Part shown: in pieces, positions 6,720 through 48,759 of the stretch | Numbering within the stretch: the first letter of the stretch is position 1 | Layout of the letters: the number at the start of each line of letters is the position of its first letter | Virus record (IMG/VR): IMGVR_UViG_3300048091_000425 | Direction: 5' to 3' (one strand) | Origin: a virus | Length of the DNA: 64,000 nt | Program-made: the position numbers and the translations under genes | Notes under the pieces: model-generated | What the model saw: the letters and a program-made list of their open reading frames with translations, nothing else | Databases searched by the model: none | Told to the model about the DNA's origin: nothing

Positions 6720-6775
6720 TTGCCAGGTGGCGCCGGAGCAATCCGGCGTCTCCCTTCTGCCCCAGAGTTATTGCC

Positions 6776-16288: not shown

Positions 16289-16939
16289 TCATGGTCGCGG
16301 CCCTTCTTCCTCGCGATTTTGCCAATCCTCTTCGAAATTGATGTCCACCCCATCGGTCTCAGGAAAATAAGGCTCTTCCTCAAGATCAGGTGCTGGAGCA
16401 TCCAACGATTCCGCCTTTACAGCCGCGTACTCCTCTGGGTACTTCAGAATCAGCCGCGCTTTGCCGCGATCCATCGATTCTCCCAGTAAGTTGAGACCCT
16501 GCCACTTGGTCTTGTCGTGGATACGGGAGTCGGTGATACCCAGGCCGATGCCCCAGATTTTGTCGTTCTTGGCCGCTTCCACCATCAGGGTGTCGAGTGA
16601 CTTGAACAGATCCAGGCGCTCTTTCGGATTCTGATCGAACCTGGCAAAGACAATGGCATCTTGAATCCCGCTACGCCGGGCGACCCAAACCTCTTCAACA
16701 TAGCCCTTAACCTTGCGACCTAATGCCTTGTGATCACCAGGCCACTTCGCAGCCAGGATCTGATCTGCGATCTCTTTGTCCCCAAACAGCATGGCTTTTG
16801 AGAACATCATCGCCTGCTCGCCGCAGTTGAACTTATAGCCCTTGATGGTGAAATCCATCATGTACCAATTCGACGGTGGGCAGGTCTTGTCGTAGAAGAA
16901 CGTGTACTTCCCGACGGTTATCATGTTGCTCATTGGCAT
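16289..16939 (-). CDS. NADAR family protein (YbiA/RibX-like)
   Basis: SNWY...F.C.EQAMMFSKAMLFGD, KALGRKVKGY, LMVEAAKNDKIWGIGL, WQGLNLLG. Confidence 0.93.
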   Translation of the reverse strand: MPMSNMITVGKYTFFYDKTCPPSNWYMMDFTIKGYKFNCGEQAMMFSKAMLFGDKEIADQILAAKWPGDHKALGRKVKGYVEEVWVARRSGIQDAIVFARFDQNPKERLDLFKSLDTLMVEAAKNDKIWGIGLGITDSRIHDKTKWQGLNLLGESMDRGKARLILKYPEEYAAVKAESLDAPAPDLEEEPYFPETDGVDINFEEDWQNREEEGPRP

Positions 16940-17778: not shown

Positions 17779-18486
17779 ATGATCAAGTCCACTTTTTTCA
17801 CCCTTATTACAGCGGCCCTGGCCTTTTTCCCAGTCGATGGTTCTGCGTTGCCAATGCGCCCGGATGCCAGCAAATTAAACCAATCGCACGTGCGATGCGG
17901 CGTGATGGGTAAATACGACGTCAGCGTCCCTTTCACCATTCGCAGCGTCACGACCGAAATGGAAACGCTCAACCCGGCTGAGGTTTGCGACTCCAGGCTG
18001 AAAAAGCTCGAAATGAAGTTGCAGGTCAATAGCCTCCAGACCGTCAGCGCCGACAGCTGGGTCAGAACACCCGTGGCCGATTACAGCCTGATAATTGAGC
18101 CGTCTGACCAAGCCCCTACCGTCAAAACAGGGGCCCTGATCAAAAAACTGTACAGCCGGGAAAGTTATGAGAGCGGCAATGGCTTCCCTTCTCAGGCCCC
18201 TGAGCGAGTCAAAGGGCTGGTGTTCATCAAGGGATCAAAGTTCGAGGGTGCGGAATTTCGCGATGATTTTTACTTGAAAAGCGATAGCCGTGGAAACCTC
18301 GAGTACATGATCCACTGCCTGATCGGCGCCAACGAGGCGGGCCAATGCAAGATGGCTTTCTCCCCCAGCGATATCGACTTGAACATGGTGGTCACCATCG
18401 CATCCTCAGACATCGACAACTACCGGGGCATTGCGAACGCGGCCAAGACCGTCGTCCGCACCCTGATCAAGAAACAAGACACTTAA
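17779..18486 (+). CDS. secreted hypothetical protein
   Basis: N-terminal signal peptide; two Cys pairs; stop overlaps the convergent adhesin stop in TTAA (18483-18486). Confidence 0.7.
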   Translation: MIKSTFFTLITAALAFFPVDGSALPMRPDASKLNQSHVRCGVMGKYDVSVPFTIRSVTTEMETLNPAEVCDSRLKKLEMKLQVNSLQTVSADSWVRTPVADYSLIIEPSDQAPTVKTGALIKKLYSRESYESGNGFPSQAPERVKGLVFIKGSKFEGAEFRDDFYLKSDSRGNLEYMIHCLIGANEAGQCKMAFSPSDIDLNMVVTIASSDIDNYRGIANAAKTVVRTLIKKQDT

Positions 18487-20402
18487 TACATGACGTCGAT
18501 GTAAACGACACCGCTCCGGCCAGCTGCCGTTTGGATAAGAAGGCCAACCGTGTCGTAGGTGACGTACCACTGACCCACTTCGGTATTGCCGCCAGAGCCA
18601 TAGCCGAAGGGTGACTTCCCGCCTTGGATGGTTCCAAATCCTTGGCCATAGCGTTGAGACCCGCTATTTCCTTGTCCGTAATAGACCGGGCCTCCTCCGG
18701 CACCAGGAATGAAGTTTGCAGGAGCTGGGCCACACGTACCAGCACTAGCGTAAGTGGCGTATGGCCCATCTGCAGCAGGTGAAACAGTTGGCCATTTAGG
18801 CTTGCCAGAACCCGTAATGATCATCGTAACGCCACCTGGCCCAACCCCATTGTAGCCGTCGATTCCGCCCATTGCGGCGCCACTGCCGCCCGCACACTCC
18901 AGCAGCGTTCCATTGGTCGCCGAGACGACCTTGCTGGAAGTCCCGTTAAAACCCACCGTCCCATCTTCACCACCTGGTGGAGGGTTGTAGTAGGTGTAGG
19001 GCAACCCAGGGGCTGCTACCCAAGCCGGGTTTGTAACAGGGTTAACACCTTTACCACCCACACCTACTTCAATGGTCAGGGTTTCTCCGGGAACCAATGT
19101 GACCGGGTGGTTGTAGACATAACCGCCGCTATGGCCACCAGATTGCATACTCCAACTACGCCATCCGAGCCCCGACGAACCTCCGCCAGCCATGCTGATC
19201 TGAGCACCGGTGACGCCCTGAGGAACGACCCAGGTGCCATTACTGGTATAGGTAAAACGATACATTTTCGGCGGGTCAGAGATCCCTTTCCACTTCCCTT
19301 CCTGGCACGACACCATTTCATATTTGGCGTTCACGCCCATCGCACCGTTGGCGGTACATGGGGTGCCGTCCGATTTGATTCCTTGAAAGAGTACTGGAGT
19401 TGCAGAGGTAATCTTGCCGCTCACATTCAACCGATTGAGGCGGCTGGACGCACTTGGGTTGAGCGTATAAGCCGCGTTGTCCGCGTCAATCAATTGCGAA
19501 CCGATGGCCTTGCCGGTTTTTACCGAGATGTCCCCGTGATTTACCTGAAGTGCTGTTTGCGCCGAGGTAAGACCGGCGTTAGAGCGAATTCCATTCTGAA
19601 CATACAGTCGCCCCATCTGCTCAACGTCCGCACTCACAATCACCCCAGCGCCAACCGCAGGTACCAAGGTGGCTGTTTTGGCGGAGCTATTACCAATGAC
19701 CAGGGGTTGACCGACCAGGTTCTGAATTCGGCTGACCCCGGTAATCATCCGGGAGGCTAACGTGGGGCCGCTCATCACTAATGGCACATGCAAGCTGCTC
19801 TTGCCATCAGTCCGGATCCAAGCGTCATCCGAAGGATTGGTTCTGGCAACGATGTTTATCGCACCCGTTTTTGGATCAGAGTTGACTGACAAGTGGGTGC
19901 TGGAGAACTGAGGTTGGTTAGCCAACCTGTTGCCTGCTGCCACCACAAGCGCGGCCACCCCAGACAGATCCGAGCGGGCCGCTGCCCCACCAACCGTCAT
20001 CACTTGGTACGGTGACACCTGCAAGGTCGCTGTGGTGAACTCTTTAGGTGCGATGCCGGCGACCGTTATCGATGTTTTGATACTGACCATGCCACCTGGA
20101 ATTGGAACTGCCGTCGTCGCCGCTGGAAAACTGCAGGGCAAATACTCAATCGCTGAAAGGCCGCCGCAGGATGCTGGTTTTAGCCAATTCGAACCAAACT
20201 GGTCGACTGGCTGGGATGGGTTGGCAGCGATCCACTTACGCAAGGCGTTGGTGTATTCGAGTAGCACGTGCCCTGTTTGACGAGCCTGATCAATCTGGAG
20301 ATCGCTGGTTTTGCTCGAAAAATTGAGCATGAGGGCGAACATCGTCAGGCTGACTGCCAGAATCAATTCAAGTAGGGTAAAGCCGCGTTGATTACGTTTC
20401 AT
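18483..20402 (-). CDS. pilV: PilV-like type IV pilus minor pilin/adhesin, paralog 3
   Basis: QRG/FTLLE prepilin site; C..NG.......SCQ.GKW segment like the shufflon PilV constant-region end; Gly-rich C-terminal domain. Confidence 0.75.
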   Translation of the reverse strand: MKRNQRGFTLLELILAVSLTMFALMLNFSSKTSDLQIDQARQTGHVLLEYTNALRKWIAANPSQPVDQFGSNWLKPASCGGLSAIEYLPCSFPAATTAVPIPGGMVSIKTSITVAGIAPKEFTTATLQVSPYQVMTVGGAAARSDLSGVAALVVAAGNRLANQPQFSSTHLSVNSDPKTGAINIVARTNPSDDAWIRTDGKSSLHVPLVMSGPTLASRMITGVSRIQNLVGQPLVIGNSSAKTATLVPAVGAGVIVSADVEQMGRLYVQNGIRSNAGLTSAQTALQVNHGDISVKTGKAIGSQLIDADNAAYTLNPSASSRLNRLNVSGKITSATPVLFQGIKSDGTPCTANGAMGVNAKYEMVSCQEGKWKGISDPPKMYRFTYTSNGTWVVPQGVTGAQISMAGGGSSGLGWRSWSMQSGGHSGGYVYNHPVTLVPGETLTIEVGVGGKGVNPVTNPAWVAAPGLPYTYYNPPPGGEDGTVGFNGTSSKVVSATNGTLLECAGGSGAAMGGIDGYNGVGPGGVTMIITGSGKPKWPTVSPAADGPYATYASAGTCGPAPANFIPGAGGGPVYYGQGNSGSQRYGQGFGTIQGGKSPFGYGSGGNTEVGQWYVTYDTVGLLIQTAAGRSGVVYIDVMY

Positions 20403-20414
20403 GGCCGCTTCCCA

Positions 20415-22298
20415 TTAATACAGCACGTCGATATAAACAATGCCGGGTTTTCCTTTATTGACGTAAACGCAGCTACCGATGAAGTCATGCGTCACGTAAC
20501 ACCCACTAGCGCCGATATCACCGCCCGAGCCATAAGCCAAGGGGGACAACCCTCCCAACTTGATTCCCGAAGAAACCTCATAGATGGCCGTTCCAGAATT
20601 TCCCCGTCCATAGTCAGCCGGGCCACAGGCACCCGGCCCGTTTTCTTTCGCGTAACTCCCGGTTGCCATCCGCGATGGCGTTGCATAAACGCCTGGCGCA
20701 TAGTCTTTCAGCACCGGTTCTATTGGATTGCCAATGGAGGCGGTAGGCGTCACCGCAGAGCCTAACATCGAGTTATAACCATTCATCGACACACCACTGC
20801 CGCCAGAACATTCAATTAATAGACCTCTGGTGAGGGAGGTAACAATTGACGAGCCGCCTGGGTAGCCAGACAAACCATCGGTCGTCGTGCTATCAGGGTT
20901 GTAGTAGATATAATAGGGAGGGCCAGGATCAGCGAGAATACCGGTTCTAATTGGCCCAGAGCCCCTCCCACCAGCCCCCACAGTGATTTGCAAAACCTCA
21001 CCAGGCTCTAAATTCATCGGATGGTTCATCACAAACCCACCCGAGTGCCCTGTCGCCGTGTAGTTGCTGGATCGCCAACCCACCCCAGAGCTACCGCCGC
21101 CAGCTATCGAGATGTAGGCGCTTGTTACCCCTTCAGGGACTGTCCAGGTACCATCGGCGGTGAAGGTAAAGCGGTAAACCTTCGGCGACTTCGTGACCCG
21201 CTCCCAATCGGCTCCACGACAAGTCATGATCCGTCCGGTAGCGTCGGAAGAGATGGCGCCAGGTGTCTGGCAGGTGGTTTTCGATTGCTGACCGGGCATG
21301 AGTGAATCTTTGACGATGAGCTTGCTCACCACATCCGCCGATTTGGTTGAACTGGTCTTGTCCGGGTCAAACAACAGTGTTGAATTGTCAACACTCTGCA
21401 AGGCTTTCGCAGTGATCGATCCAGAGCCTTGATCCAGGTTACCAGTCAGGATATTGATCGACGCATCCGCTATGATTTGATCACGCGCTTGTAATTCGCC
21501 CAGGATCGTTGCATCCGAATCAATCACTACGCCACTGGTCAAGGATGAGCTCAAGCCACTTGCTGGGCCAAGATAGAGCAGTTCTCCAGCAAAACTTTCG
21601 AGGGCCGATGCTCCGACCACGTTTCGCAGCAATGGCGAGACGTTACCCATTTTCAATGAACCGCTCATCATGTTGCCGCCGTCGACGCGCAGCCATGGGT
21701 CGTTGGTGGCGACGTTACTGGCCTCCAGTGTGATCACCCCAGTCTTTGGATCAGCATTCACTTTACCGTCAGAGTTTAGGGCGTCCGCTTGGGTGGGTTT
21801 GCTGCTGGCAACAACGATAGCAATGACGCCGGCCAAGTCCGCCCGCGTCTTGGTGTCCAATTTGTAGGCTGTGACTGACGATGTAGCCCTTGTCTCAAAG
21901 GAGAAACCTTTGGGAACAGAGATAATCTGGGTTTGCACCGACAGTCCACCCCGAGAGAATGGCACCGCTGTACTTAAGGATGGGAAGTTACACGGAAGAT
22001 ACTCAATGCTCGAAAGCCCACCGCAGCTGGTGCTTTTCAACCAGTCAGTGCCGCTGTAGATCCCGTTCGCACCAAGGTTTTGGGACACATACGAGCGCAC
22101 GCCGTTGTTGTATTGAGCCAGGATGTTGCCAGCCAAACGCGCCTGATTTTGGTCATTCTCTGCTCGGTTGGCTTCCATTGTCAGCAAGGAGGCAATCGCC
22201 ACCAGTCCCATGGCTAACACCACTTCGAGCAAGGTGAATCCAGCCTGCTTGGGAGATGTATTGGGGCGGTGGCTTTTTCTCGAATTAATAGAAAACAT
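20415..22298 (-). CDS. pilV: PilV-like type IV pilus minor pilin/adhesin, paralog 2
   Basis: QAG/FTLLE; RADLAGV, WLRVDG, CQTPG...TCRG.DW; Gly-rich C-terminus. Confidence 0.75.
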   Translation of the reverse strand: MFSINSRKSHRPNTSPKQAGFTLLEVVLAMGLVAIASLLTMEANRAENDQNQARLAGNILAQYNNGVRSYVSQNLGANGIYSGTDWLKSTSCGGLSSIEYLPCNFPSLSTAVPFSRGGLSVQTQIISVPKGFSFETRATSSVTAYKLDTKTRADLAGVIAIVVASSKPTQADALNSDGKVNADPKTGVITLEASNVATNDPWLRVDGGNMMSGSLKMGNVSPLLRNVVGASALESFAGELLYLGPASGLSSSLTSGVVIDSDATILGELQARDQIIADASINILTGNLDQGSGSITAKALQSVDNSTLLFDPDKTSSTKSADVVSKLIVKDSLMPGQQSKTTCQTPGAISSDATGRIMTCRGADWERVTKSPKVYRFTFTADGTWTVPEGVTSAYISIAGGGSSGVGWRSSNYTATGHSGGFVMNHPMNLEPGEVLQITVGAGGRGSGPIRTGILADPGPPYYIYYNPDSTTTDGLSGYPGGSSIVTSLTRGLLIECSGGSGVSMNGYNSMLGSAVTPTASIGNPIEPVLKDYAPGVYATPSRMATGSYAKENGPGACGPADYGRGNSGTAIYEVSSGIKLGGLSPLAYGSGGDIGASGCYVTHDFIGSCVYVNKGKPGIVYIDVLY

Positions 22299-24189
22299 CG
22301 ATCATCACCACTCCGTCAGAACCATTTTGAGGAAATCTGCACGATTCTTGCTTCGCGGCTGTGACAAAGCAGCGGGAAATAACCAAATCACCACCGGAGC
22401 CATAACCAAAAGGCGTGCGCCCTCCGCTGATCATGTCGCCGACAGAAGCAGAGTTATACATAGCTTCTACGCCAAGGCCGTAGTTACCAACTCCACACAC
22501 ACCGGGCCCCCAAACATCCCCAGCAGCGGAATGTGTGGTCTTTTGTGCCTGCCAGGTGTAAGTGGACGGCGCAAACGGAACCATGACGATGGAAGCGACT
22601 GAAGCTACTGGGTTCGTGTTATTTTCGCCATGAAGAGCAGCAGACGTGATCCCCGAACCTGAGCTTCCTGCCCCGCCAGAGCATTCAAGCAATAGCCCAT
22701 TGGTTGGGGACGTGACTCTCGTGGTACCGCCTGGAAGTCCGGTTAAACCAGAGTTAGCGGGGTTTCCCCAAAAAACGTAGAACGGGTATCCAGCGTTCGA
22801 GAGTATGCCGCTGTTTACAGGTGCGTAGGCTAATGCACCCTTACCTACGTTTATCTGAATTACTTCACCTGGCACCATAGGCACCTGATGGTTCATCACA
22901 AAGCCACCAGAGTGGCCGGAGCTACTGTGGGATTCGACACGCCAGCCCATGCCGGAACCACCCCCACCGGCAGCGGAGATGAAGCCGCTAGTGACGTGAT
23001 CTGGCACTGTCCAGCTACCACTGGATGTGAACACAAAACGGTGCAATACCGGCGACTTGCCGACTTTTAGCCATAAATTGCCCTGACACGACAACAGATT
23101 GTTCGCAGCATCTTTGGCGACTTCGCCATTCGTGGGACAACCCGCAAGCTCCACGACAACCGTGTTGATCTCCAGTACAGGGTCAGGACGAGACGCCACC
23201 GGCACGGAAAGATCTGGAGTGATGCTGGCCGCGCCGTCGAGCGTCAGGGTACTGAATTTGCTCTGGCCTCCAGGGTTTGCCATGTAGGCACCAGCAGCTG
23301 AGTTGTAGAGGCCCTGCTTTGTGATCAAATTGCCTAGCGGAATTTTCGTGTTACCCGAAGCGATAACCACCGAGTTGGCAGAATCAATGCCCCCGTCGGC
23401 CAGCAGACGGCCAAGCACCTCAGTGTCCGAGTCAACCACCACCGTGGCGCCAGCCGGGATCCCTAGGCCACTTGAAGAACCAAATATCAGAGGTTGGCCA
23501 GGGATAGGCTGGATGCGTGAGGCGCCAACGATGCGGCGATTCGCAGCCAATGAGCTGTCAAAGGACAGGTTGCCATCCATTGTGTTGCCGCCGTCGGCTC
23601 GCAGCCAGGCGTCACCAGATTCCGGCTTTCTGGTCGTCATGGCGATCACAGCGGTTTTTGCGTTGGCATTGATCGAGCCGAACATGGTGCGGTCGAATGC
23701 ATTACCACTCAAGGCAGCCATTGCCGCAACGCCGGCCAGATCTGCCCGAGGAAGGCCGGAGAGCAGGTAAGGCGAAAACGTGGTCTGCCCCATCGTTTCT
23801 GTTTTTTCAGCGTTGGTGACCGTCGAAATGATGGTTTTAACGGTCAGGCTTCCCGGCATCAGGGGCTCTGGATTGACCACATCGGTGATGTCTGCCGTGG
23901 GGAATTTGCAATCAAGATAGCCTGGCGCTGGCGCCAGGCCGCCGCAGGAGACAGGCTTCAACCATTTGGTACCGGAGTAACTGCCGGACGCTCCTGGGTG
24001 GTCAGCAATCCACTTCTGGACGGCTTTTCCATAATCACGCAACTGGCCACCCGTGCCTTTGGCGGCATTGATGTAGAAGTCTGCCGACTGGCTTTCCACG
24101 GTAAACACGGCGGCGATGGAAAGCAGGCTGACGACAAACACAACCTCTATGAGGGTGGCGCCCTTTTGCCTTGATTTGGAAGAATGCAC
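22285..24189 (-). CDS. pilV: PilV-like type IV pilus minor pilin/adhesin, paralog 1
   Basis: QKG/ATLIE; RADLAGV, WLRADG, CPTNG...SCQG.LW; Gly-rich C-terminus. Confidence 0.75.
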   Translation of the reverse strand: MHSSKSRQKGATLIEVVFVVSLLSIAAVFTVESQSADFYINAAKGTGGQLRDYGKAVQKWIADHPGASGSYSGTKWLKPVSCGGLAPAPGYLDCKFPTADITDVVNPEPLMPGSLTVKTIISTVTNAEKTETMGQTTFSPYLLSGLPRADLAGVAAMAALSGNAFDRTMFGSINANAKTAVIAMTTRKPESGDAWLRADGGNTMDGNLSFDSSLAANRRIVGASRIQPIPGQPLIFGSSSGLGIPAGATVVVDSDTEVLGRLLADGGIDSANSVVIASGNTKIPLGNLITKQGLYNSAAGAYMANPGGQSKFSTLTLDGAASITPDLSVPVASRPDPVLEINTVVVELAGCPTNGEVAKDAANNLLSCQGNLWLKVGKSPVLHRFVFTSSGSWTVPDHVTSGFISAAGGGGSGMGWRVESHSSSGHSGGFVMNHQVPMVPGEVIQINVGKGALAYAPVNSGILSNAGYPFYVFWGNPANSGLTGLPGGTTRVTSPTNGLLLECSGGAGSSGSGITSAALHGENNTNPVASVASIVMVPFAPSTYTWQAQKTTHSAAGDVWGPGVCGVGNYGLGVEAMYNSASVGDMISGGRTPFGYGSGGDLVISRCFVTAAKQESCRFPQNGSDGVVMIDVFY

Positions 24190-24635: not shown

Positions 24636-25145
24636 TTAATGTCTCTCCCAGACCTCAAACTGATACGCCGGGCTTTTGTCGGTGGCGAGGTTCGGGGTAT
24701 TCGACGCCAGAACCCACCGACCAGCCTTGAACTCAGGGAACCAGGTATCGCCATCAGGGTTCAAGTCGACGCGGGTGATATAGAGACGGTCGGCCTGCTC
24801 CAAGGCTTGGGCATAAAGCTGCGCCCCACCGATCAGCATGATCTCATCGGCGCAGTGCTCATAGGCCCAGGTCGTGGCTCGCTCTAAGGCAGCATCCAAA
24901 GAATCAAACACCTCGGCGCCATCGAGGTGCAGGCCTTTTTGACGGCTCACCACCAGGTTCAGTCGACCCGGCAAAGGACGACCCAGGGAGTCCCAGGTTA
25001 AGCGCCCCATGATGACCGGTTTGCCGAGTGTCCTGGCCTTGAAGTACTTGAAGTCGCCCGGTAGATGCCAGGGCATGGTGTTGTTGATACCAATCACACC
25101 GTTTTGCGCGACGGCGGCGATCAGACTCAGGGGAATCTGTTTCAT
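24636..25145 (-). CDS. folA: dihydrofolate reductase
   Basis: LIAA..QNGVIG.NNTMPWHLPGDFKYFK..TLGKPVIMGRLTWDSLGRPLPGR.N.V.SR, IGGAQLY, DTWFP. Confidence 0.97.
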   Translation of the reverse strand: MKQIPLSLIAAVAQNGVIGINNTMPWHLPGDFKYFKARTLGKPVIMGRLTWDSLGRPLPGRLNLVVSRQKGLHLDGAEVFDSLDAALERATTWAYEHCADEIMLIGGAQLYAQALEQADRLYITRVDLNPDGDTWFPEFKAGRWVLASNTPNLATDKSPAYQFEVWERH

Positions 25146-28909: not shown

Positions 28910-29491
28910 TTATGCCGCCCGCGTTGGCTTTTGACAGTTCCTGCGCACCGCACAGCCTCGACAAAGCGCCTCACTGGTCGCAAATACCCTGATCTCTTCG
29001 CCGGCGTTGGCAGCCCTGGCATGTTTGACCAGGGGCTTGATCTGTTCGTAAATCTCATCGCTCGGAAAGTCGACATCGACCTCATGACGTTGGTCGCCGA
29101 CGATCACATACGCCAGGGAGACATCAAAGCGCTCTCGGGCAGCAATGACCGTGGCCTTCACTTGGGCGACATCGGAGCTAAACAGCCGTCCGCTGCTGCG
29201 GCTCTTGTACTCCACCACGGCGTAGGCGCCCATATCAAAACGAAGCACGAAATCAGGCTTGGCCACGATCCCAAACTCTTTCGACACCAGGGAGGGTGTA
29301 GCGCGGCCACGGTCGGCATAAACCACTTCAGCGTCAAAGCCCAGGTGTGCGATCACGGCCTCTCGGCGGCGCTTGCCGACATTGGCAGCGACAAACACCA
29401 GCAACAAGCCAAACAACGTAAGGCCCAAGATCATGAGCACGTCGTACGGCACAGTGGGAACGAGACTGGCAAGCGTATGTAGATCCATCAC
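28910..29491 (-). CDS. membrane-anchored Cas4-like PD-(D/E)XK nuclease (C-terminal part of split Cas4)
   Basis: N-terminal TM helix; KPDFVL, VVEYKS, DVAQ; terminal C-x2-C-x5-C. Confidence 0.75.
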   Translation of the reverse strand: MMDLHTLASLVPTVPYDVLMILGLTLFGLLLVFVAANVGKRRREAVIAHLGFDAEVVYADRGRATPSLVSKEFGIVAKPDFVLRFDMGAYAVVEYKSRSSGRLFSSDVAQVKATVIAARERFDVSLAYVIVGDQRHEVDVDFPSDEIYEQIKPLVKHARAANAGEEIRVFATSEALCRGCAVRRNCQKPTRAA

Positions 29492-29901
29492 TCATCACCC
29501 TTCCTGACCGACCTGCTTATTCGCTGCACCCCGGCCTTAACAATCCGCGCCAACATCGGAGAGCGCCGGCACTGTTTCACCAGCCATGGGGAACACCGGT
29601 AATACACCCGCACCAGCACCCGCCCCCACCACGTCGGTTTCAAGACACGGTCGCGCCAGGCTCGCAGGGACACCGTCACCGCATCATCCTCGCCAAAGGC
29701 ATAGGTCGCCACGTAACAGCGCCTGTCCAGATCGTTCATCACCTTGCTGGTTAGATCCTCATGCATGTGTGTGCCGCGTTGCCGGGCATCATGGGATTCC
29801 GCGCTTTCGGGAGAAAGCTTCTTGGACAAATACAGGGAATGCGGGCAGTACGCTGCCTTGCCGATGTCAGAGGCCGAAACAAGCGCTTTGTTTTTGCTCA
29901 C
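29488..29901 (-). CDS. Cas4 N-terminal segment fused to CFI-box-CTERM-like domain
   Basis: SASDIG..AYCP and RG.HMH (Cas4 N-terminus); CYVATYAFG...LR.WRD..L....GR..V..YY..SP (CFI-box-like). Confidence 0.7.
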   Translation of the reverse strand: MSKNKALVSASDIGKAAYCPHSLYLSKKLSPESAESHDARQRGTHMHEDLTSKVMNDLDRRCYVATYAFGEDDAVTVSLRAWRDRVLKPTWWGRVLVRVYYRCSPWLVKQCRRSPMLARIVKAGVQRISRSVRKGDE

Positions 29902-36310: not shown

Positions 36311-37873
36311 TTACAGCCCCAGATCTTGACTGAACTGTTGAGTCAAATCTTCGGGCGATAGCTGCTGCAAATACTTGCGGTCGACCAGGTCGTTGTTGAT
36401 CAGGGCGCGTAGGTACTGCGGGACGTTCTTAACCAATTGGACGACCTCGTCCTCTGGCGTCGTCTTGGTGAACAGCGTCGCAGCCGCCTCCATTGACTGG
36501 GTTCGATAAGTGCCATCGATAAATCGCGGGCCATCGTAGGTGTTATTACCTTTGACGAACAAGGAATAGTCACACGCCATCAAGATCAGCGCGTTCCTGA
36601 CGATTTGGGTGCTGGTCAGGGTTTCTGGATCAGGCACGTCCTTCCCTGAAAAGTAGAACCGTGAGTACATTATCGTGGCTTGAGCCTCTAAACCCTCCTC
36701 GATGATCAGCTTACCTTTCTCAAAATGCTCACTCAGTTGTGGGAGTTCCTTTGCGAGCATCAGTTGCCCGGCCAGCTGGTTGTAATCCATGCCGCACAAA
36801 AGGTTGAAGGTCATCCCTGCCTTTTCCATCTGAGGCACCGCCATCAGCTTGGAAATGTGCATTGCACCTCGGCAATGATCCTTCATCAGACTTTTAATAT
36901 AAGGATCAGCGAGAAGACGGGCATTGAATCGCTGAAGCCGGCCAAGAAACACGTTGTCTCTCATGAGGAAGCCATTACACCCGTCCAGATCCAGCCACTT
37001 TCGATTGAGGTAGGCGTCCAGGAAATCGGTATTCACCAGGCGGCGTAATGCCTGATCACTAAGCGTCTCCAGATGATCAAAGACAGTCGCAGGGACATAG
37101 GAGAAGGCTGGTCTTAACCCATATGCGTCGAACTTATCCAAACCGGCGTCAAACTTGGCGATCAGCGACGACATAAATTGTGGGAGGATCACAGGAAGAC
37201 GACCGATCTCGTCGGCTGAAATAACGTCCAACATGGCCGCTAGATCATCAAAATCAAGTTCGGCGAGCGCACGCAAATGCATCTCTGCTGAACTTGAATC
37301 ATCAGTTCCTGTTGCGTTTTCGGCATGAACGTGAAACCGGCACAGTGCCGCGTTGCCCACCGACTTTTCACGCAGTGTCGCCGGGTCGCAAAACATTATC
37401 GATAGCTTGAGATTTTTGGTGAAGAAGTCAATTCGATCCTTGGAAGAAGCGGCATCGTGTCCTTTGAGATGACGCTCGCTGTAGACCTCCATCATCGAGT
37501 TAATCGAGAAATCCACACCCAGCGGCCCAGCCAGGCTCTTGAGTAGATCAAAGTGACCGGTATCCAAATAGGGGCCGGGATGGCTGAAGAACCGGTCACG
37601 CAGCTGGAGGGCCACGTCCAAGCTCTCGGTAAAGCCCGGCAAGGCCAACAGGCCACGATCCACGGCAAAGGCCAGTAGTACGCCGGAGAGTTCCTCTACT
37701 GAGAGGTCAAACAGCGTTCTGAGCGCAGCATGGCGGCTGCCAACCGGAATCTGATCAAAGAGTGCCTCCAGGCCTTCACCGTCTTTCACAAGGCAGTGAC
37801 GGGCCTCATGGGCCACCACGGCAAGCACCTCGGCGGGGCTCAGCGCTGCGAAATCGATTCTGTTCATGATCAC
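36311..37873 (-). CDS. FxxDLGL-tail family protein
   Basis: 520 aa; ends QQFSQDLGL; distant paralog of the two upstream genes. Confidence 0.85.
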   Translation of the reverse strand: MIMNRIDFAALSPAEVLAVVAHEARHCLVKDGEGLEALFDQIPVGSRHAALRTLFDLSVEELSGVLLAFAVDRGLLALPGFTESLDVALQLRDRFFSHPGPYLDTGHFDLLKSLAGPLGVDFSINSMMEVYSERHLKGHDAASSKDRIDFFTKNLKLSIMFCDPATLREKSVGNAALCRFHVHAENATGTDDSSSAEMHLRALAELDFDDLAAMLDVISADEIGRLPVILPQFMSSLIAKFDAGLDKFDAYGLRPAFSYVPATVFDHLETLSDQALRRLVNTDFLDAYLNRKWLDLDGCNGFLMRDNVFLGRLQRFNARLLADPYIKSLMKDHCRGAMHISKLMAVPQMEKAGMTFNLLCGMDYNQLAGQLMLAKELPQLSEHFEKGKLIIEEGLEAQATIMYSRFYFSGKDVPDPETLTSTQIVRNALILMACDYSLFVKGNNTYDGPRFIDGTYRTQSMEAAATLFTKTTPEDEVVQLVKNVPQYLRALINNDLVDRKYLQQLSPEDLTQQFSQDLGL

Positions 37874-39492
37874 AGCCCCAAATCCTTACCGAATTCTTGA
37901 CCCAGCATCGGCAGCGGCAGCTTGGCCATATGCTCTTTCTTCAAGACAGCCTCGTTGATCAGATACCTGAGGAGGTCAGGTCGTTTGCCCACCGCTTCCA
38001 GCAGATCATCTTCACTCAGCGAGCGGGTGATCACCTTCAGCGTCCCAGGGACACCCAAACTGCGGCCTGGCAGATGGTTGTGGCAGAAGAAAAGAACCGG
38101 GGTTATCGCCTTCATCTTTGACTGATGCCAGTCGTCTTCATGGATGGCGCTTTCACAGGCCAGCCTGGCCGCCATGTGATTCACCTTGAAGTCATCTGTC
38201 ACCTTGTCAGGCGCTTTCATGTATTTCTTATCGGCCTGCTCATAAAACTCGTCGTACAGCTTCACCAAAGCAGGCTTCACACCTTCTTTCAGAAGCTCCA
38301 CCCCATGCTCCCGATAGCTGGCCAACAGGGGGTAATCGGCGGCGAATTTAACCAGGGCAGCGAAGCGATCTGTCTGCTGGGCATTGTTATGGACGCTGAG
38401 GGTAACGCCCTGTTCTTTCAGCCGGGAGCTCAACATCAGGGTCACCATGCCTTGGCAGCCAGGTGCGGCGATACCTTGGTGATTGGTGATGTATTTGACG
38501 ACAAACCTATCGCTCAGGATTCTCTCGTTAAAGCTGTCGACCAGGGCCAGGTAAACCGGGTCATCATAGTCATGGCCGTTTTTGGCTAACGGAACCATCC
38601 AGTTCGAAGTCAGATACTGATCCATAAAGCGGCCCCTAACCTGTTTGAAGAAGCTTTCATCTGGTAAGGCCATCAGCTCGCTCAACACGGTGGCTGGGCG
38701 AACCTTGAGCACCGCTGTAATGAATCTGAGGGATTCTTGCTTGAACGGCAGGTTCACGACTGTTTTTATCGCAGCGTCCAAGTGAGGGTTTAGAGGCTCA
38801 AGACCTGGATGAAAACCGCGCCCCAACATGAGGGTCATGGAGCCAACATCATTGATATTGAAGGTAGAGACAGTCTTCAACAACTCAAACTCAGAAGTTT
38901 TATCAATCCCCAAACTGCTGATTGTCTCGGCGAATCGGTAAGCCACCTGGTTCCCGACCTCAGGATCATCCACAGTATCCTGAGCGCAGAACAAGCGTAG
39001 GTACTCAAGGCTGGTAACGGCACCGGTCAGCATGGCATCGCTTCCCTTATCAATCTTGAACCCTATGCTTTTGTCACCGGCGTCATAGCTGTTGAAGATC
39101 GTGTCGACGCTGTCCATGGTGTAGGCCTTGCCATGGTGAGCTGCCGCTTTTCTCAGAATCTTGATGTGCCCAAGAGATGATAATGCCCCTTTCTGGTTAT
39201 CAAACACGCGGCGGCGGATGCGATCAGCGACTTCCAGGTCTTGGTAAAGATCCGGATAGAGCTCATCGATCCCCTTACCCTGCACGTAGTCCAGGATGTT
39301 GGCGCTGAAGAAATGGATCGCACGAGCATAAGCGTGGAGCAACGCCTGACCCTTCAGTGCCTCAGGGAAGGTGGCAAGGAGCATATCCACTTCGATAGGG
39401 TCGGCACCTTTGACCTTCATGCGGTACAGCGCTTTATGGAAGGCCTCGAAATGCTCGTAGGCTTTGAGTTCTGGTAGTTCGAAAATGGACAT
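37870..39492 (-). CDS. FxxDLGL-tail family protein
   Basis: ATG 39492 (MSIFEL) after GAGG; ends QEFGKDLGL; clear paralog of 39562..41193. Confidence 0.85.
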   Translation of the reverse strand: MSIFELPELKAYEHFEAFHKALYRMKVKGADPIEVDMLLATFPEALKGQALLHAYARAIHFFSANILDYVQGKGIDELYPDLYQDLEVADRIRRRVFDNQKGALSSLGHIKILRKAAAHHGKAYTMDSVDTIFNSYDAGDKSIGFKIDKGSDAMLTGAVTSLEYLRLFCAQDTVDDPEVGNQVAYRFAETISSLGIDKTSEFELLKTVSTFNINDVGSMTLMLGRGFHPGLEPLNPHLDAAIKTVVNLPFKQESLRFITAVLKVRPATVLSELMALPDESFFKQVRGRFMDQYLTSNWMVPLAKNGHDYDDPVYLALVDSFNERILSDRFVVKYITNHQGIAAPGCQGMVTLMLSSRLKEQGVTLSVHNNAQQTDRFAALVKFAADYPLLASYREHGVELLKEGVKPALVKLYDEFYEQADKKYMKAPDKVTDDFKVNHMAARLACESAIHEDDWHQSKMKAITPVLFFCHNHLPGRSLGVPGTLKVITRSLSEDDLLEAVGKRPDLLRYLINEAVLKKEHMAKLPLPMLGQEFGKDLGL

Positions 39493-39561
39493 GCTGACCC
39501 CTCTTTTCAACAGTCTACGGGGTGCAGATGGTGCATCACAATGTTGGCGCTGCGCCTTGGA

Positions 39562-41193
39562 TCATAAGCCCAAGTCCTTGCCGAAGAACTCCCCCTGCTC
39601 TTTCAGGGGCAGCCGGGCGAGGTGCTTGCGGTCGAGAATCTCGAGCTGGATCAGCCGCCTGAAGTAGCTCTGGTTCTTGCCGATGGCATCGAGGATCTCG
39701 TCTTCGCTTAACGACCTGGCAACCTCTATGACGACGCCTTTGGAAAAGGCCGTTCGCTTCTTGAAAGCCGAGTTGTCCCGATTATCCATGCCGTGCAACA
39801 CGGGGGTATCGCGTTTCTTGTCAGCTTCGTTGCTCACGCTGACCCCCATTTCACAGGCCAGCCGTACCGCCATGTACTTGTACTTGTAGTCGTCTGAGAC
39901 CTCAGACCCCTGGCGCAAGCCTTTGACTTTCGCCGTCGAAAAGGAATGCAGGTAGAGCCGGGTGAACTCCTTCTCGAAACACTCTTTGAGGTAATCCAGT
40001 CCTGCCTGCCGGTACGATGCCAAGCCAGGAAATTTCCCGGCGTGGGCCACCAAGGCGGCAAAGTTTTCTGCTCGCGGGTGGTGTTCAGGTTTGTCGATTG
40101 GTAAATAAATCCCCATGCTGACCATCCTGGGAAGCATTATCAGCGTTTCCAGTCCGTTGCACTCAGGCTCTTGAAATGCTGGGTGCCGTTCCAGGCGACT
40201 GGCGATCAAAGGGTCAGCAACCAGGCGTTCGCAGATCCGCTCAAGCTGATCAATGAAAGCCTGATCGTTGTAGTCACACATGGCCGTATTCTCGGGCTTC
40301 AGCCAACCTCCACCCAGGAATTGGTCAAGCAGTGGGCCGCGCATGGTCTTTTGAAAGCGCTGGTCATCCAGATTGGCCAGCCGTTGCACCATCGTTTGAG
40401 GGATAAGTTGAAAAGCCCACCCGAGAAACTCGATTCGCTGAAGTGAATAGTGCTCCAGCGCATCTGGTAAGCACCGCGCAAACTGAGCTTGAAAATGCGG
40501 CGCGCTTTTATGGAAGTCAGCTTTCAAAATGGCGGTAAGTGCCGAGGTGTCACTGATGGTGAACCCGCAGACAACCTCCGTAAGCGCCTCAAGTGTGGGC
40601 ATCGTCGGCCCGCTCTTCGCCACGAGTATTCCCTCCTTTCGGATGAACTCGGCGAGGCGGTAGGCAACACGGTCTCCCACCTCCACATCAGCCTTGATAT
40701 CGGTCGGGAAAAGATCCATCAGAAGCTGAAGATTCTTGAGGAAATAGGCCAGGGTTACCTTGGTTCCGGTTTTCATGCCACCGGACTGCAAGTTCTCTGG
40801 ACTGAACAGCGTATCAATGCAATTGAGAACATAGTCAACACCATGGTGAGCAATGGTGTTGCGAAACAACTCGTGATGGCCCGTGGACTTGTCGGTGGAC
40901 TCGCGAAACAAGCTATTACGGATGCGATCTGCCAATTCCAAGTCATGGTGCAACGCCGGGTACAGCTGATCAATCCCCTTAGCGAGGGTGAAGGTCAGCA
41001 GCGGTTCATTGAGGAAGTTGGCAGACAGCTCGTAGGCATACAAAAGCGCCGGGCCACGGAGATCTGCCGGGAAGGCTTCATAGGCCATTTCTAATCGGGT
41101 CGGATCTGTATCTGCACGGAATTGGATGCAGAGCATGTTGAAGCTACTGAAATGCTCTGAATCTCTGAGTGCTTCGTCGTCGAAAATTGACAT
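39562..41193 (-). CDS. FxxDLGL-tail family protein
   Basis: ATG 41193 (MSIFDD); ends EFFGKDLGL. Confidence 0.85.
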   Translation of the reverse strand: MSIFDDEALRDSEHFSSFNMLCIQFRADTDPTRLEMAYEAFPADLRGPALLYAYELSANFLNEPLLTFTLAKGIDQLYPALHHDLELADRIRNSLFRESTDKSTGHHELFRNTIAHHGVDYVLNCIDTLFSPENLQSGGMKTGTKVTLAYFLKNLQLLMDLFPTDIKADVEVGDRVAYRLAEFIRKEGILVAKSGPTMPTLEALTEVVCGFTISDTSALTAILKADFHKSAPHFQAQFARCLPDALEHYSLQRIEFLGWAFQLIPQTMVQRLANLDDQRFQKTMRGPLLDQFLGGGWLKPENTAMCDYNDQAFIDQLERICERLVADPLIASRLERHPAFQEPECNGLETLIMLPRMVSMGIYLPIDKPEHHPRAENFAALVAHAGKFPGLASYRQAGLDYLKECFEKEFTRLYLHSFSTAKVKGLRQGSEVSDDYKYKYMAVRLACEMGVSVSNEADKKRDTPVLHGMDNRDNSAFKKRTAFSKGVVIEVARSLSEDEILDAIGKNQSYFRRLIQLEILDRKHLARLPLKEQGEFFGKDLGL

Positions 41194-41333
41194 GTGTACC
41201 CCGGCTATTTTCAACCAGTGTACGTGGCGCAGCTTCTCGCTCACAACGGCGCCGGCCTGCCCTTCCCGACGACATTGATGCTAATCGTTGGGCGAGTTAC
41301 CCTCTTGGCCTGGTACCCATTGGCGAGAGCGGC

Positions 41334-42622: not shown

Positions 42623-42754
42623 AGCCAATCGCCTGATCCAAAAGGGATTTTTGCCATCAATTGTCAAGCCTTCCAATTGATTTTTTTAACAATTGACGCA
42701 ATCATGGGGCATATGAATTTTTGCTGACCTTATGGGTTGGCCCAAAGGCCTCAC

Positions 42755-44737
42755 ATGCTCAAGAACAACCAAGTGCTGATGCAGCTGAAAGCCGGTTTTA
42801 CCGCGACCGTCAGCTCCACCTCCAGCGTTAGTCAAAGTGCCCCAACACTGGTCACAGGCATCGTGCGCGGCACCCGCAAGGACTATGGTTTCCTCAAATG
42901 TGCCGACGGCACCGACCACTTCCTGCCACCACCACAGATGAGCCGTTGCTTTCATGGCGATGTCGTGGAAGCCGAGATCATTGATAATCACAGCGGCGAC
43001 GGCAAGACCGAGGCCTGCATTCTGCGCATCGTTGAGTCCTCGATCTCTGGCTTCGTCGGCGTCGTGCGCAACAAGGGCCACAACCCCTACATCCAGCCGG
43101 AGAACCCCAACCTCAAACGGGACTTTCTGATCCCGCGCATTAAGCGTGGCAGAGAGCGTGAAGGCGACTTCGTCTGGGCCCGCGTGATCAAGCACCCGTT
43201 TGAGGATGGTGGCTGCCACGCTGAAGTAGAAGCCGTCATTTGCAGTGATCGTGATCGCCAGGCACCTTGGAAAGTGGCCAGTGCCCGCAACGGCCTCAAG
43301 CACGAAGCACCGCCCTTCGATCACGACGAGATCCAGGCCCTTAATCTGACGGACGACGTTACGGGTGACGAGAGCTTTGACTGGCGCCATGAATGCCTGG
43401 TGACCATCGACGGCGAGAACAGTCGCGACCTCGACGACGCCGTCATGGCCAAGCGTTCCGGTACCGACATTCTGCTGACGGTGGCCATTGCCGACCCTGC
43501 CCGCTTTCTGATTGAAGACGGCATCATGGATCGGGAAGCACGCTTGCGCTGCTTTACCACCTACTACCCAGGCATGAGCCTGCCGATGCTGTCGAAGGTG
43601 ATTTCCGAACAGGGCGCCTCGCTCGTCGCCGGCGAAGACCGTTCAAGCGTCTGCTGCAACATGATCATCAATGAAGCGGGCGAGATCACCGACTCGTACT
43701 TCTTCCTGGCCACCATCAACTCCAAGGCCAAGCTGTCCTATGAAGCCGTACAGGCGTTCCTGGACGGCGACCGCAGCGCTTGCCCTAATCATGTAGCGGA
43801 TGTGCTGGAATGCCTCAATGAGGTCGGCCTACGCCGCAGGAACTGGCGTAACAGCCACGCCCTGGCCTCCAGCCGTTATAAGGACTACACCTTCGTGGTA
43901 GAAGACTTTGCGCTGAAGTCCGTGCGCCCGTCCGTCCAGCTCCAATCCAACCGCCTGGTTGAAGAGTGCATGATCGCGGCCAACTTCAGTTTCGCTCAGT
44001 ACATGAAGCTCCACGGCATGCCGTGCGTTTACCGCCGCCACGACGGCTTCAAGCCAGAACGGCTGGAAGAGCTGGTGCTATTGCTGGCTGAGCATGGGGT
44101 TACCACGACCGCCGAGAACCTGGTGGGATTCGAGGGTTACCGCGAAGTCATGAGGACGGTGCTGGCGCTGGAAAACCCGGCGCTGGAGCAGCTGCTGATC
44201 GGCTTCTACGCCAAAAGCCGGCACTCCACCGAGTTCGGGCCGCACTACTCCCTCGGTCTTGATGGATATGCGACCTTCACCTCGCCGATCCGCAAGTACA
44301 GTGACCTGATGAACCACCGGTCGCTGAAAGCCCTGTTGCGCAATCAAGCCACCACCGTACAGACGTTCACGCCTGAGATGATGGAATTACTGGATGAAAA
44401 GTTCTCGGCCACCGACCGGGCTGCACGTGATGTGCAGAATGACCTCTACATCCAGCTGTACCAGGGCAAGATCGGCGAGCAATTCGACGCGGTGGTGACC
44501 GGGGTGATGCCGGCTGGCGTGAAAGCTGAGATCATTGAAACCGGCGCCCCGGTATTTCTCTCGACCCGCACGCTGGGACGCAAGTATGACGTCTTTGAGG
44601 TCAGTCAGGATGGCATGAGCCTGCTCAAGAAGGGCCACCCCATTGCCAAGATTGGTCAGGAGCTCAAGATCATCATCAACCTGATCGACATTCCTGGCCG
44701 CTCCATCAACGCCACCCTGCCGGCTGCCGAAGCTTAA
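42755..44737 (+). CDS. rnb: exoribonuclease II (RNB family)
   Basis: N-terminal NQVL.QLK; G.VR.T.K.YGFL...F.PPPQM...HGD (CSD1); TIDGENSRDLDDA catalytic motif; YATFTSPIRKYSDL.NHR. Confidence 0.93.
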   Translation: MLKNNQVLMQLKAGFTATVSSTSSVSQSAPTLVTGIVRGTRKDYGFLKCADGTDHFLPPPQMSRCFHGDVVEAEIIDNHSGDGKTEACILRIVESSISGFVGVVRNKGHNPYIQPENPNLKRDFLIPRIKRGREREGDFVWARVIKHPFEDGGCHAEVEAVICSDRDRQAPWKVASARNGLKHEAPPFDHDEIQALNLTDDVTGDESFDWRHECLVTIDGENSRDLDDAVMAKRSGTDILLTVAIADPARFLIEDGIMDREARLRCFTTYYPGMSLPMLSKVISEQGASLVAGEDRSSVCCNMIINEAGEITDSYFFLATINSKAKLSYEAVQAFLDGDRSACPNHVADVLECLNEVGLRRRNWRNSHALASSRYKDYTFVVEDFALKSVRPSVQLQSNRLVEECMIAANFSFAQYMKLHGMPCVYRRHDGFKPERLEELVLLLAEHGVTTTAENLVGFEGYREVMRTVLALENPALEQLLIGFYAKSRHSTEFGPHYSLGLDGYATFTSPIRKYSDLMNHRSLKALLRNQATTVQTFTPEMMELLDEKFSATDRAARDVQNDLYIQLYQGKIGEQFDAVVTGVMPAGVKAEIIETGAPVFLSTRTLGRKYDVFEVSQDGMSLLKKGHPIAKIGQELKIIINLIDIPGRSINATLPAAEA

Positions 44738-47560: not shown

Positions 47561-47577
47561 GCACTACCTCAGTAAAT

Positions 47578-48759
47578 TCAAATGCCCAGATCTTTGGAAA
47601 ACGCCTTGCCTCGCTCTTTTACGCTCATCGCGTGAACATAGCGCGGTTCCCCGGTCGCCTCATGCAGGGATCGCAACAGCTTCTCTTTTTGCGGGTGCGC
47701 GAGCACTGCCTCGAGCGGTGCCGTCGACAATAACGGCAAATAGCCTGGTCTGGAAAGCTTGCTGGCGCAAACCGCAACCATGGCCGGGTAATCGCGTGGG
47801 CCGTCACGCCGATCAAGGTAGCCAAGCCGGCCATAGTGCCCCGCCAGGAATCCCTCGTAGCAATCAATGCCAGCCTTGATCATCCGCATGATCAGCAGAT
47901 TCGCGTTTATGAATTCGGCGTTCCCAAGCTTCATCACCTGCTCGATAAACTCCACCGGCGCTCGCTGGATCAGATTGACGTCGAAAAACTGCTCAAGAAA
48001 CCCCAGCCTCTGCGCTGTGGTGTACGGGACATATCCCAGAAACTTCCCGTCGACCTCATGACTATAGCTATCGACGTTGATGAAACTGGCCAACAGCGTC
48101 TGCCAATAGCCATCGAGTGAGGTGCTGGTCGTCGGCGGCTGGGCATGGTTCTCAGCGTTGTATTGCGCCGCCACTCGGTCGACCTTCACACCTTCCGCAC
48201 TCAACTTTGAAATACAGTTGATGACCCATGCTGGCGTGAGATGGCTGTCCGCCCCCTTTAGGGAACACAGCCACTGGGCCGCCTCCAGATCATCATGTTG
48301 GAGTGCAGACTTGCAGAACTCGCGGGCGTACAGTGGCTTCTTGACCAGCTCACCAACCGCTTGAGGTGATCGAAAACCGCCGTCACCGCCGCGACACAGC
48401 TGAGCTTTCATGTACACGTGCTTAGGAGTGAGCATCGACGTGATTTTCAATGCAGCTTTATGCTTGATCAGGTAATCGAACGCCAGATCTGTCCCGTGCG
48501 GGTCAGCCAGGCCAAAAATCACAGCAGCTTGCAGGCAGCCCAGATGCCCATGCCAGGACTTGGCGCCATTCTTCAGGTGCTCGTCTTTCAGCACGTCCAG
48601 CAACCACAGAACATCCTTCGCGCCATAACCCGCAGTGTCGAGCACGAGCATGGCCCTGAAACAAAGTTCAGCCTTGGCCACCCAGGTGTAGGGGTTAGCG
48701 TCGTAAGCACTGCCTAAGGCCCCGCTGAGAATCGCTTTAGCCCTGTTGAAGTCGGTCAT
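47578..48759 (-). CDS. FxxDLGL-tail family protein
   Basis: ATG 48759 overlaps the upstream stop (ATGA); ends KAFSKDLGI; paralog of 48756..49958. Confidence 0.85.
   Translation of the reverse strand: MTDFNRAKAILSGALGSAYDANPYTWVAKAELCFRAMLVLDTAGYGAKDVLWLLDVLKDEHLKNGAKSWHGHLGCLQAAVIFGLADPHGTDLAFDYLIKHKAALKITSMLTPKHVYMKAQLCRGGDGGFRSPQAVGELVKKPLYAREFCKSALQHDDLEAAQWLCSLKGADSHLTPAWVINCISKLSAEGVKVDRVAAQYNAENHAQPPTTSTSLDGYWQTLLASFINVDSYSHEVDGKFLGYVPYTTAQRLGFLEQFFDVNLIQRAPVEFIEQVMKLGNAEFINANLLIMRMIKAGIDCYEGFLAGHYGRLGYLDRRDGPRDYPAMVAVCASKLSRPGYLPLLSTAPLEAVLAHPQKEKLLRSLHEATGEPRYVHAMSVKERGKAFSKDLGI

Follow-up and report, generated by a model that had tools for sequence, protein, structure and literature searches.

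A pair of adjacent genes in the IMG/VR virus record IMGVR_UViG_3300048091_000425, analysed here as one stretch of 64,000 nucleotides (hereafter the window), is overall best explained as a single, permanently split nuclease of the Cas4 family, i.e., of the 'iron-staple' PD-(D/E)XK nucleases, located at the inner membrane. We give this reading a probability of about 0.72. Both genes lie on the minus strand. Open reading frame (ORF) A (29488..29901; 137 amino acids, aa) would encode a small soluble subunit that joins a Cas4-like N-terminal piece to a CFI-box domain, and ORF B (28910..29491; 193 aa) a membrane-anchored Cas4-like catalytic core. Cas4 and AddB nucleases bind a 4Fe-4S cluster through one N-terminal cysteine (YCP) and a C-terminal C-x2-C-x5-C motif, and to our knowledge the known iron-staple nucleases of the Cas4 family are either single-chain proteins or domains. 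Here the four cysteines are not on one chain, three being C-terminal in B and the other, C19, in A, and a cluster completed in trans is predicted. The gene pair, its motifs, their conservation and the fold were all observed in silico, and at that level the molecular identity of the pair is fairly secure.

A preliminary description of this DNA, drawn from the sequence itself, had read YCP, RG.HMH and CFI-box motifs in A and PD, EYK, QVKAT and C-x2-C-x5-C motifs in B, and both ORFs and every one of these motifs were found where it had placed them. In order, A carries VSASDIGKAAYCPH (also quoted as SASDIGKAAYCPH), RGTHMHEDL, CYVATYAFGE, LRAWRD and GRVLVRVYYRCSP. Its first 58 residues (29728..29901) correspond to the Cas4 N-terminal piece and include the codons of Cys19 (29845..29847), the predicted first Fe-S ligand, and of His47 (29761..29763), the predicted motif-I metal ligand. 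B carries KPDF (D80), VEYK (E94, K96), QVKAT (Q110, with no Tyr) and C177-x2-C180-x5-C186, the last of these (28934..28963) at the end of the core. The stop of A and the start of B share the letters GTGA (29488..29491), an overlap that the preliminary description had also pointed out and that would couple their translation. Starting B at its second codon (ATG), as one public gene call does, changes the overlap to TGATG. A 4-nucleotide overlap of A and B was also found in five related Pseudomonas plasmid loci (those that computed cleanly), and the two genes nearly abut or overlap in most of the remaining loci. RefSeq has only generic names for the two products, namely 'CFI-box-CTERM domain-containing protein' and, for its partner, 'PD-(D/E)XK nuclease family protein'.

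The division into two genes is conserved far beyond the window. Relatives of B, 12 of them close and 80 from a wider search, extended down to about 25-35% identity and were all 114-245 aa long, in searches that would have admitted proteins of up to 338-349 aa, and no fused A-B form occurred among these 80 or among the best 150 relatives of A. When 1.84 billion representative proteins were searched with an A profile, 399 clusters were recovered at E ≤ 1e-10; in ~140 of the best 150 clusters the match spans the CFI-box as well as the Cas4 piece, and these proteins are ~125-195 aa long. A lies upstream of B on the same strand in all 18 fetched B loci (about 14 of them non-redundant; local hmmsearch). 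In one of these loci (L002; B 46% identical) A and B are kept apart by an unrelated gene of 211 aa that runs in the opposite direction, so that a fused or frameshifted product need not be invoked. The ratio of nonsynonymous to synonymous substitution rates (dN/dS) was 0.11-0.25 for both genes, at dS values of 0.5-2.2, and purifying selection acts on both A and B. Every one of 67 diverse A relatives, including short variants that have no CFI-box, keeps C19 and H47, and all of 48 B relatives keep D60, K78, P79, D80, E94, K96, Q110, C177, C180 and C186. Given this invariance, the catalytic and cysteine motifs listed above are not chance occurrences.

These observations bear directly on the possibility that the pair is a decaying or mis-sequenced intact cas4, i.e., a frameshift artefact or a pseudogene. 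Its support comes from the 4-nucleotide overlap of the two frames and from one apparently fused protein, P0045, which proved to be a read-through artefact of an Aeromonas pair. A further candidate for a fused form, P0113 (363 aa), was rejected as well: it has an A-like N-terminus (the Cys/His piece and the CFI-box) followed by an unrelated C-terminal region of ~220 aa, in which no Cas4 core was found. Decay is contradicted by the persistence of the split in 18 loci of several genera, by the spacer gene of L002, by the dN/dS values and by the lack of a fused homolog in searches open to proteins of up to 349 aa. In addition, a CFI-box and a transmembrane (TM) helix lie between the two halves, so a simple fusion would not restore a Cas4. 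We regard the frameshift and pseudogene readings as excluded for practical purposes, with a residual probability close to nil. The split is genuine and old, and the contention of the preliminary description that this is a split rather than a decayed cas4 was borne out by a synteny survey in which every locus was paired.

Cas4 profile models fall on the pair as complementary halves, model positions 2-51 tiling across A and positions 45 or 61 onward across B. For A, TIGR00372 (cas4) aligned residues 9-56 with model positions 2-47 (E 0.0023; 17.8 bits vs a cut-off of 65), the Cas4 models of PADLOC aligned through positions 2-47, 4-47 and 4-51, and residues 1-59 matched the PHROG exonuclease family phrog_69 (E 5e-5). 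An hhalign comparison of the A profile with the N-termini of intact Cas4 proteins gave a weak match (E 0.02), which placed 'aYCP' on 'sYCPR' and 'G...H' on 'RG...H'. The invariant H47 is thereby aligned with the 'RG...H' of intact Cas4, in an alignment that is itself weak. For B, TIGR00372 aligned over model positions 61-179 (E 2.3e-9; 37.4 bits vs the cut-off of 65), PF01930 scored 12.4 bits vs a cut-off of 22.7, and PF12705 (PDDEXK_1) passed its gathering threshold of 22 with 30.9 bits (E 3.4e-7; profile positions 90-247 of 247). The Cas4 models start on B at position 45, 46 or 61 and run through to the model end. Compared by hhalign with five intact Cas4 genes from sampled genomes, the B profile reached a probability of 97.7% (E 2.1e-12). 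In the PDB, hmmsearch with the deeper B alignment found the Cas4 structure 8d3l (E 1.7e-5), laying the D80/E94/K96 region on its 'VEYK'; a PDB sequence search with a smaller B alignment gave no match, and the A profile returned from the PDB a chance match alone (uPAR, E 0.43).

The predicted structure of B agrees with these profiles. The AlphaFold2 (AF2) model of B has a mean predicted local distance difference test (pLDDT) score of 92.9, with residues 16-50 as one long helix, and that of A a mean of 89.8, with an all-helical fold whose last helix is amphipathic. The PD-(D/E)XK/Cas4 core of B (residues 53-193; 28913..29335), delimited by VIA-align, hmmsearch and hhalign, superposed on Cas4 residues 65-213 of the G. 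sulfurreducens Cas4-Cas1 structure 7mi4 with Z 10.1 and a root-mean-square deviation of 3.9 over 132 aligned residues. VIA-align also placed B on residues 56-207 of the type I-C Cas4 8d3l (Z 8.1) and on residues 69-202 of SSO0001, 4ic1 (Z 7.7). Foldseek gave E 1e-4 and a probability of 1.00 for a Cas4/RecB-like fold, and further structural neighbours were MGME1, AdnAB, Exo5, Dna2 and ACE1. As the superpositions start only at Cas4 residue ~56-69, B lacks the first ~55-68 residues of a Cas4. A metal-ligand histidine of SSO0001, His62, lies within this missing region according to PMC13621843 (citing Lemak 2013). Elsewhere, a metagenomic protein of 175 aa (P0239) is a distant TM-anchored Cas4-like protein with 23% identity to B and an intact QxxxY motif (QVAAY).

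Complex prediction used our own alignments for both chains with a 4Fe-4S cluster riding along, in three runs and with three controls. The A+B complex scored 0.82 in each of the three runs, and the best of the three controls 0.00. Of 80 solved complexes 58 reach a score of 0.82, and of 110 mismatched pairs 2 do so; these counts are only rough here because the alignments were our own and a small molecule was carried along. At least 79% of contacts agreed between runs. The confident interface joins A residues 4-29, a helix pair around C19, to B residues 69-77, 104-117, 151-171 and 176-188, the last of which takes in C177, C180 and C186. The high score may be owed to a resemblance to Cas4 structures already solved rather than be independent evidence of binding, since A and B would be the split-gene halves of a family with solved structures. 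The preliminary description had proposed a heterodimeric Cas4-like nuclease at the inner membrane whose first cysteine is supplied by a CFI-box partner, and this model gains support from the conserved split, the selection on both genes, the tiling of profiles, the fold of B and the complex controls.

The membrane placement derives from the N-terminus of B, where the preliminary description had noted a TM helix. Residues 18-40 (29372..29440) take in this helix and the KRRRE cluster after it, and residues 18-36 form a 19-residue hydrophobic segment with a mean Kyte-Doolittle (KD) value of 2.81. An N-terminal hydrophobic segment is present in 47 of 48 B relatives, with a median of three K/R in the ten residues after it and none before it. 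By the positive-inside rule the short N-terminus would be periplasmic and the core cytoplasmic, and B is probably anchored in the inner membrane in this N-out/C-in orientation, its nuclease core facing the cytoplasm. A has no 19-residue segment of TM grade (maximum KD 0.55, family median 1.08) and no signal peptide.

The second part of A is a clear CFI-box. NF041770 (CFI_box_CTERM) matched residues 62-127 (29521..29718) over model positions 1-67 of 69 with E 4.6e-18 and 64.8 bits vs a cut-off of 40, and the CFI-box-like segment reported in the preliminary description is thus above the curated cut-off. Within the box C62, G70, R80, R83, G93, Y100, Y101 and P105 are invariant. A keeps all conserved box residues of canonical CFI-box proteins, but its setting differs from theirs. 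In sampled Pseudomonadota genomes the canonical box ends a large protein in 12 of 12 cases (11 frames of 1305-2265 aa and one, L009, of 548 aa), with a Gly-rich linker before it and a hydrophobic tail of 24-56 residues (KD 1.6-2.8) and RRR after it. A, in contrast, is 137 aa long and stops 10 residues past the box, and a TM segment and RRR open B instead. One attractive hypothesis is that an ancestral 'CFI-box + TM + RRR' module was divided at the A/B boundary. This idea is weakened by short A variants of 79-80 aa (L031:7762-8004 and L033:7762-8001), which come from two distant loci, have no CFI-box, end in a short hydrophobic helix after the Cys/His piece and lie directly upstream of TM-anchored B genes. 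As these box-less variants still pair with a TM-anchored B, the CFI-box would be accessory to the split. Nor is the box restricted to anchored giant proteins, since TM-less CFI-box proteins with unrelated N-terminal parts occur elsewhere (L020:1117-1725, 203 aa; L022:664-1776, 371 aa; L023, minus strand, 105 aa). No clear rule that a TM-less CFI-box protein is followed by a TM-first gene was seen in L020-L023. The helical bundle of the CFI-box had no convincing fold match in Foldseek against the PDB (E >3), in a wide VIA search (best Z 5.8) or in Atlas, a result that does not demonstrate a new fold.

Gammaproteobacterial conjugative plasmids, elements resembling integrative and conjugative elements (ICE-like elements) and Pseudomonas megaplasmids carry the pair as an accessory module, and only rarely. 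The window is itself plasmid DNA, as it carries a gene for a Rep3-family replication initiator (WH1 and WH2 domains; 51804-52697, minus strand); a 23-bp tandem repeat lies at 54197-54259, about 1.5 kb from the Rep3 gene. The closest relatives are on Pseudomonas plasmids of ~1 Mb, with 97% identity of B in P. serbica, and identity falls to 77% on P. silesiensis pPL1, 59% on pPLMAXa and 35% on a 910-kb plasmid of strain FeN3W. By tblastn, B was present in 27 of the 72,556 plasmids in PLSDB (Aeromonas 14, Marinobacter 5, Vibrio 5, Pseudomonas 2 and Microbulbifer 1), 7 of which were typed as conjugative, 16 as mobilizable and 4 as non-mobilizable. A class-wide sample of 400 genomes held the pair in a single genome, G001; its other matches were canonical CFI-box giants or intact Cas4. 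A search of the G001 genome with TIGR00372 gave no match, although the model recognises B when this protein is scanned by itself, a discrepancy that we ascribe to the first-look filter of the genome search. This sporadic distribution over plasmids and genomes marks the pair as rare accessory cargo of mobile elements and not as a core transfer gene.

Its neighbourhoods vary accordingly between elements. In three metagenomic contigs (L025, L027 and L029) the pair lies divergently beside a backbone of SSB, RecT and YqaJ genes with cobS-like AAA_5, DUF3150 and VWA-CobT genes; in L033 its neighbours include TraU, TraC, YqaJ and a topoisomerase, in L006 ssb and TraG_N genes, and in L007 and L008 genes with DNA-repair annotations (AlkB and a SOS-response-associated peptidase). 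On the Pseudomonas megaplasmids it sits among small unrelated genes together with DUF4262 and DUF808, and the nearest 4 kb or so contain neither tra nor recombination genes. No cas genes were found in any fetched neighbourhood of the pair. Other genes were seen close to it. On the ICE-like contig L027 an IS605 OrfB/TnpB-type gene (6336-7394; Cas12f1-like TNB domain) lies just upstream of the pair, and in L025 (11199-12176) and L029 (10753-11709), which are related conjugative-element contigs, an Endonuclease_1 gene (EndA/Dns-like, usually periplasmic) occurs with a DUF4942 protein a few kb downstream. On the Marinobacter plasmid pMAQU02 (L008:2074-3489) a fused MFS/spermidine-synthase gene directly precedes the pair.

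From sequence and models we infer a heterodimer with a shared cluster, a composite active site and the topology given above. One N-terminal helix would hold B in the inner membrane with its catalytic core toward the cytoplasm, and B would supply the D/ExK metal site together with the Q motif and three of the cluster cysteines. A would be its soluble, translationally coupled partner, whose first ~58 residues replace the missing Cas4 N-terminus. If the first helices of A dock on the C-terminal Cys loop of B, then Cys19 would complete the [4Fe-4S] cluster across the subunit interface, and His47 may complete the catalytic metal site, probably with D80 and E94 of B. A two-chain enzyme to which A donates both Cys19 and His47 is, on this sequence and model evidence, strongly favoured. 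With its ligands divided between A and B, the enzyme would be active only after assembly at the membrane. The CFI-box could serve as an accessory juxtamembrane or docking domain, as suggested by the short A variants that do without it. If it behaves like Cas4, AddB, Dna2 and MGME1, the enzyme would act on free single-stranded DNA ends, and its placement would restrict it to ends that appear at the membrane.

Several points weigh against this reading of the pair, and most concern A. Its likeness to the Cas4 N-terminus is weak in each individual comparison (E 0.0023, 6e-4 and 0.02; hhalign probability 2.3%), and the link draws on short motifs and on consistency. Both Cas4 models, TIGR00372 and PF01930, score below their curated cut-offs, and the Tyr of QxxxY has been lost family-wide, with T, S, A or C in its place next to an invariant Q110. 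In the complex the partner has a pLDDT of only 56-57. The C19 helix of A is predicted against the three cysteines of B; His47 and the CFI-box lie outside the confident predicted interface and neither is confidently placed. A cytoplasmic CFI-box is topologically puzzling, because canonical boxes immediately precede a TM anchor in giant proteins that are presumably secreted. PADLOC, run on the pair and eight neighbours, returned a generic Cas4 alone and no other defence family, PHROGs gave no defence family for the eight neighbours, and the recurrent neighbours SSB, RecT and YqaJ suit a role in recombination as well as one in defence. The binding of A to B, the Fe-S cluster, the nuclease activity and the localisation are all predictions.

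Some of the same points would fit an arrangement in which B alone is the functional nuclease, with three cysteines or no cluster, and A contributes no ligands and is a regulator or adaptor only, e.g., an inhibitor, a chaperone or a membrane-docking factor. The weak statistics of A and the position of His47 are as expected on such an account, and a solo-Cas4 mutant without an Fe-S cluster is reportedly still active, as stated in PMC13621843 (citing Rentz 2025). Yet C19 and H47 do not vary in 67 A sequences, the box-less short variants among them, B has no element of the first ~55-68 Cas4 residues, and the predicted interface sets the C19 helix against C177, C180 and C186. We consider B acting alone improbable, and the two-chain enzyme remains the preferred reading.

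What such an enzyme does for its element is a guess, and so are the conjugation, anti-phage and anti-CRISPR roles raised in the preliminary description. The likeliest role is an attack on linear DNA entering the cell, such as phage genomes or the transferred strands of rival elements, with self and non-self told apart by location; it is favoured because the family acts on free ends, the enzyme would be confined to the membrane and the pair is sporadic cargo. We put forward this defence or exclusion role tentatively, as a possibility that falls short of an even chance. SNIPE, an inner-membrane nuclease, has been experimentally shown to cut phage DNA on entry (PMC13190303). A more specific version, which we regard as speculative and slightly less likely still, is a spatially gated immunity or exclusion nuclease: it would be complete only when A and B meet through the inter-subunit [4Fe-4S] cluster, its CFI-box would dock at the DNA-entry machinery, and it would thread in and degrade the free ends of phage or rival-plasmid DNA on passage through the inner membrane, while circular self DNA is spared.

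Nearly as likely as an attack on entering DNA is that the same two-chain membrane nuclease serves the DNA of its own element, either by trimming strands during conjugative entry or exit or by preparing ends for SSB, RecT (Bet) and YqaJ (Exo). The SSB-RecT-YqaJ genes beside the pair in L025, L027 and L029, the transfer and recombination genes near it in L033 and L006 and the repair-annotated neighbours in L007 and L008 are all in its favour, but the first three contigs share one backbone and are not independent. Moreover, a processing enzyme of this kind is hard to match with a pair that is as rare as was found (27 of 72,556 PLSDB plasmids and 1 of 400 sampled genomes), that also occurs on non-mobilizable or merely mobilizable plasmids, and that on the Pseudomonas megaplasmids is separated by at least about 4 kb from any tra or recombination gene. 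That the pair instead modulates host CRISPR, as an anti-CRISPR or a hijacker of spacer acquisition of the kind proposed for some virus-borne Cas4 genes, is very unlikely. Cas4 family membership and carriage on mobile elements would be compatible with it, and Cas4 clades borne by mobile genetic elements (MGEs) are known (PMC5704561). However, the window, which the preliminary description had already called CRISPR-free, contained no CRISPR-like array but just a pair of short tandem repeats with a period of 22-23; the nearest genome, G001 (100% complete), yielded no Cas1; and membrane anchoring has no obvious place in adaptation. The preferred role for the split nuclease is still, tentatively, an attack on entering DNA.

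Other features of the window were noted in passing. The second of its tandem repeats (7418-7516) has a 22-bp unit in 4.5 copies with a 90% match, and its consensus includes the palindrome TGCCAAATGGCA. Three tandem paralogs of ~630 aa (18483-24189, minus strand) carry an N-terminal prepilin methylation motif (N_methyl), one of them with a Gly-rich C-terminal domain. The minus strand also encodes a nucleoside 2-deoxyribosyltransferase (540-1328), a NADAR domain protein (16289-16939) and a dihydrofolate reductase (24636-25145), and the plus strand an RNase II/R-like protein (42737-44737; RNB, OB and CSD domains). Runs of large ORFs with no Pfam match occupy 36311-41244 (520-560 aa) and 46085-49958 (400-490 aa), both on the minus strand.

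Among known systems, CRISPR-associated Cas4 (8D3L, 7MI4 and 4IC1) stands closest to the pair. It shares the core fold, the D/ExK residues and C-x2-C-x5-C with B, for which it is the best sequence match in the PDB and among intact relatives, and its N-terminal 'YCP' cysteine and 'RG..H' histidine have putative counterparts on A. Unlike CRISPR Cas4, the pair is made of two polypeptides, bears a TM anchor and a CFI-box, has lost the Tyr of QxxxY and is accompanied by no cas1, cas2 or array. The solo-Cas4 and MGE-Cas4 clades (PMC5704561), which include one on Burkholderiales conjugative plasmids described by Hudaiberdiev et al. 2017, resemble the pair in being Cas4-family, non-CRISPR and plasmid-borne but are single-chain; a term search of that paper returned no mention of transmembrane, split or truncated Cas4. 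AddB/AdnAB, Dna2, Exo5 and the cluster-less MGME1, which are nucleases of free DNA ends, also resemble B in structure (Z 6.4-9.3), but they occur as domains within large soluble helicase-nucleases or as mitochondrial enzymes, and none is split in trans or membrane-anchored. The Argonaute-associated ACE1 (9IAB/9IAC), another Cas4-family nuclease in a non-CRISPR system, matches B in structure (Z 6.3-7.5), but is single-chain, soluble and linked to prokaryotic Argonaute (pAgo), which is absent here. SNIPE (PMC13190303) provides a functional analogy alone, that of a nuclease constitutively at the inner membrane; no relationship of sequence or fold is claimed, and it differs from the pair as a single protein with other domains and an experimentally shown role. 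Our literature search turned up neither an account of a split or membrane-anchored Cas4 nor a paper on the CFI-box, and the A/B pair appears to be undescribed.

If the two-chain reading is true, the family would gain a new architecture, with an Fe-S cluster and a catalytic metal site built across two chains of which one is anchored in the membrane, and the pair would offer a natural system for nuclease activity gated by assembly. The pair also provides a uniform and tractable clade of plasmid-borne 'solo Cas4' proteins, a poorly understood group, and gives the so far uncharacterised CFI-box its first defined partner. Should its role be an attack at DNA entry, the principle of SNIPE, in which self and non-self are distinguished by location, would extend to plasmid competition.

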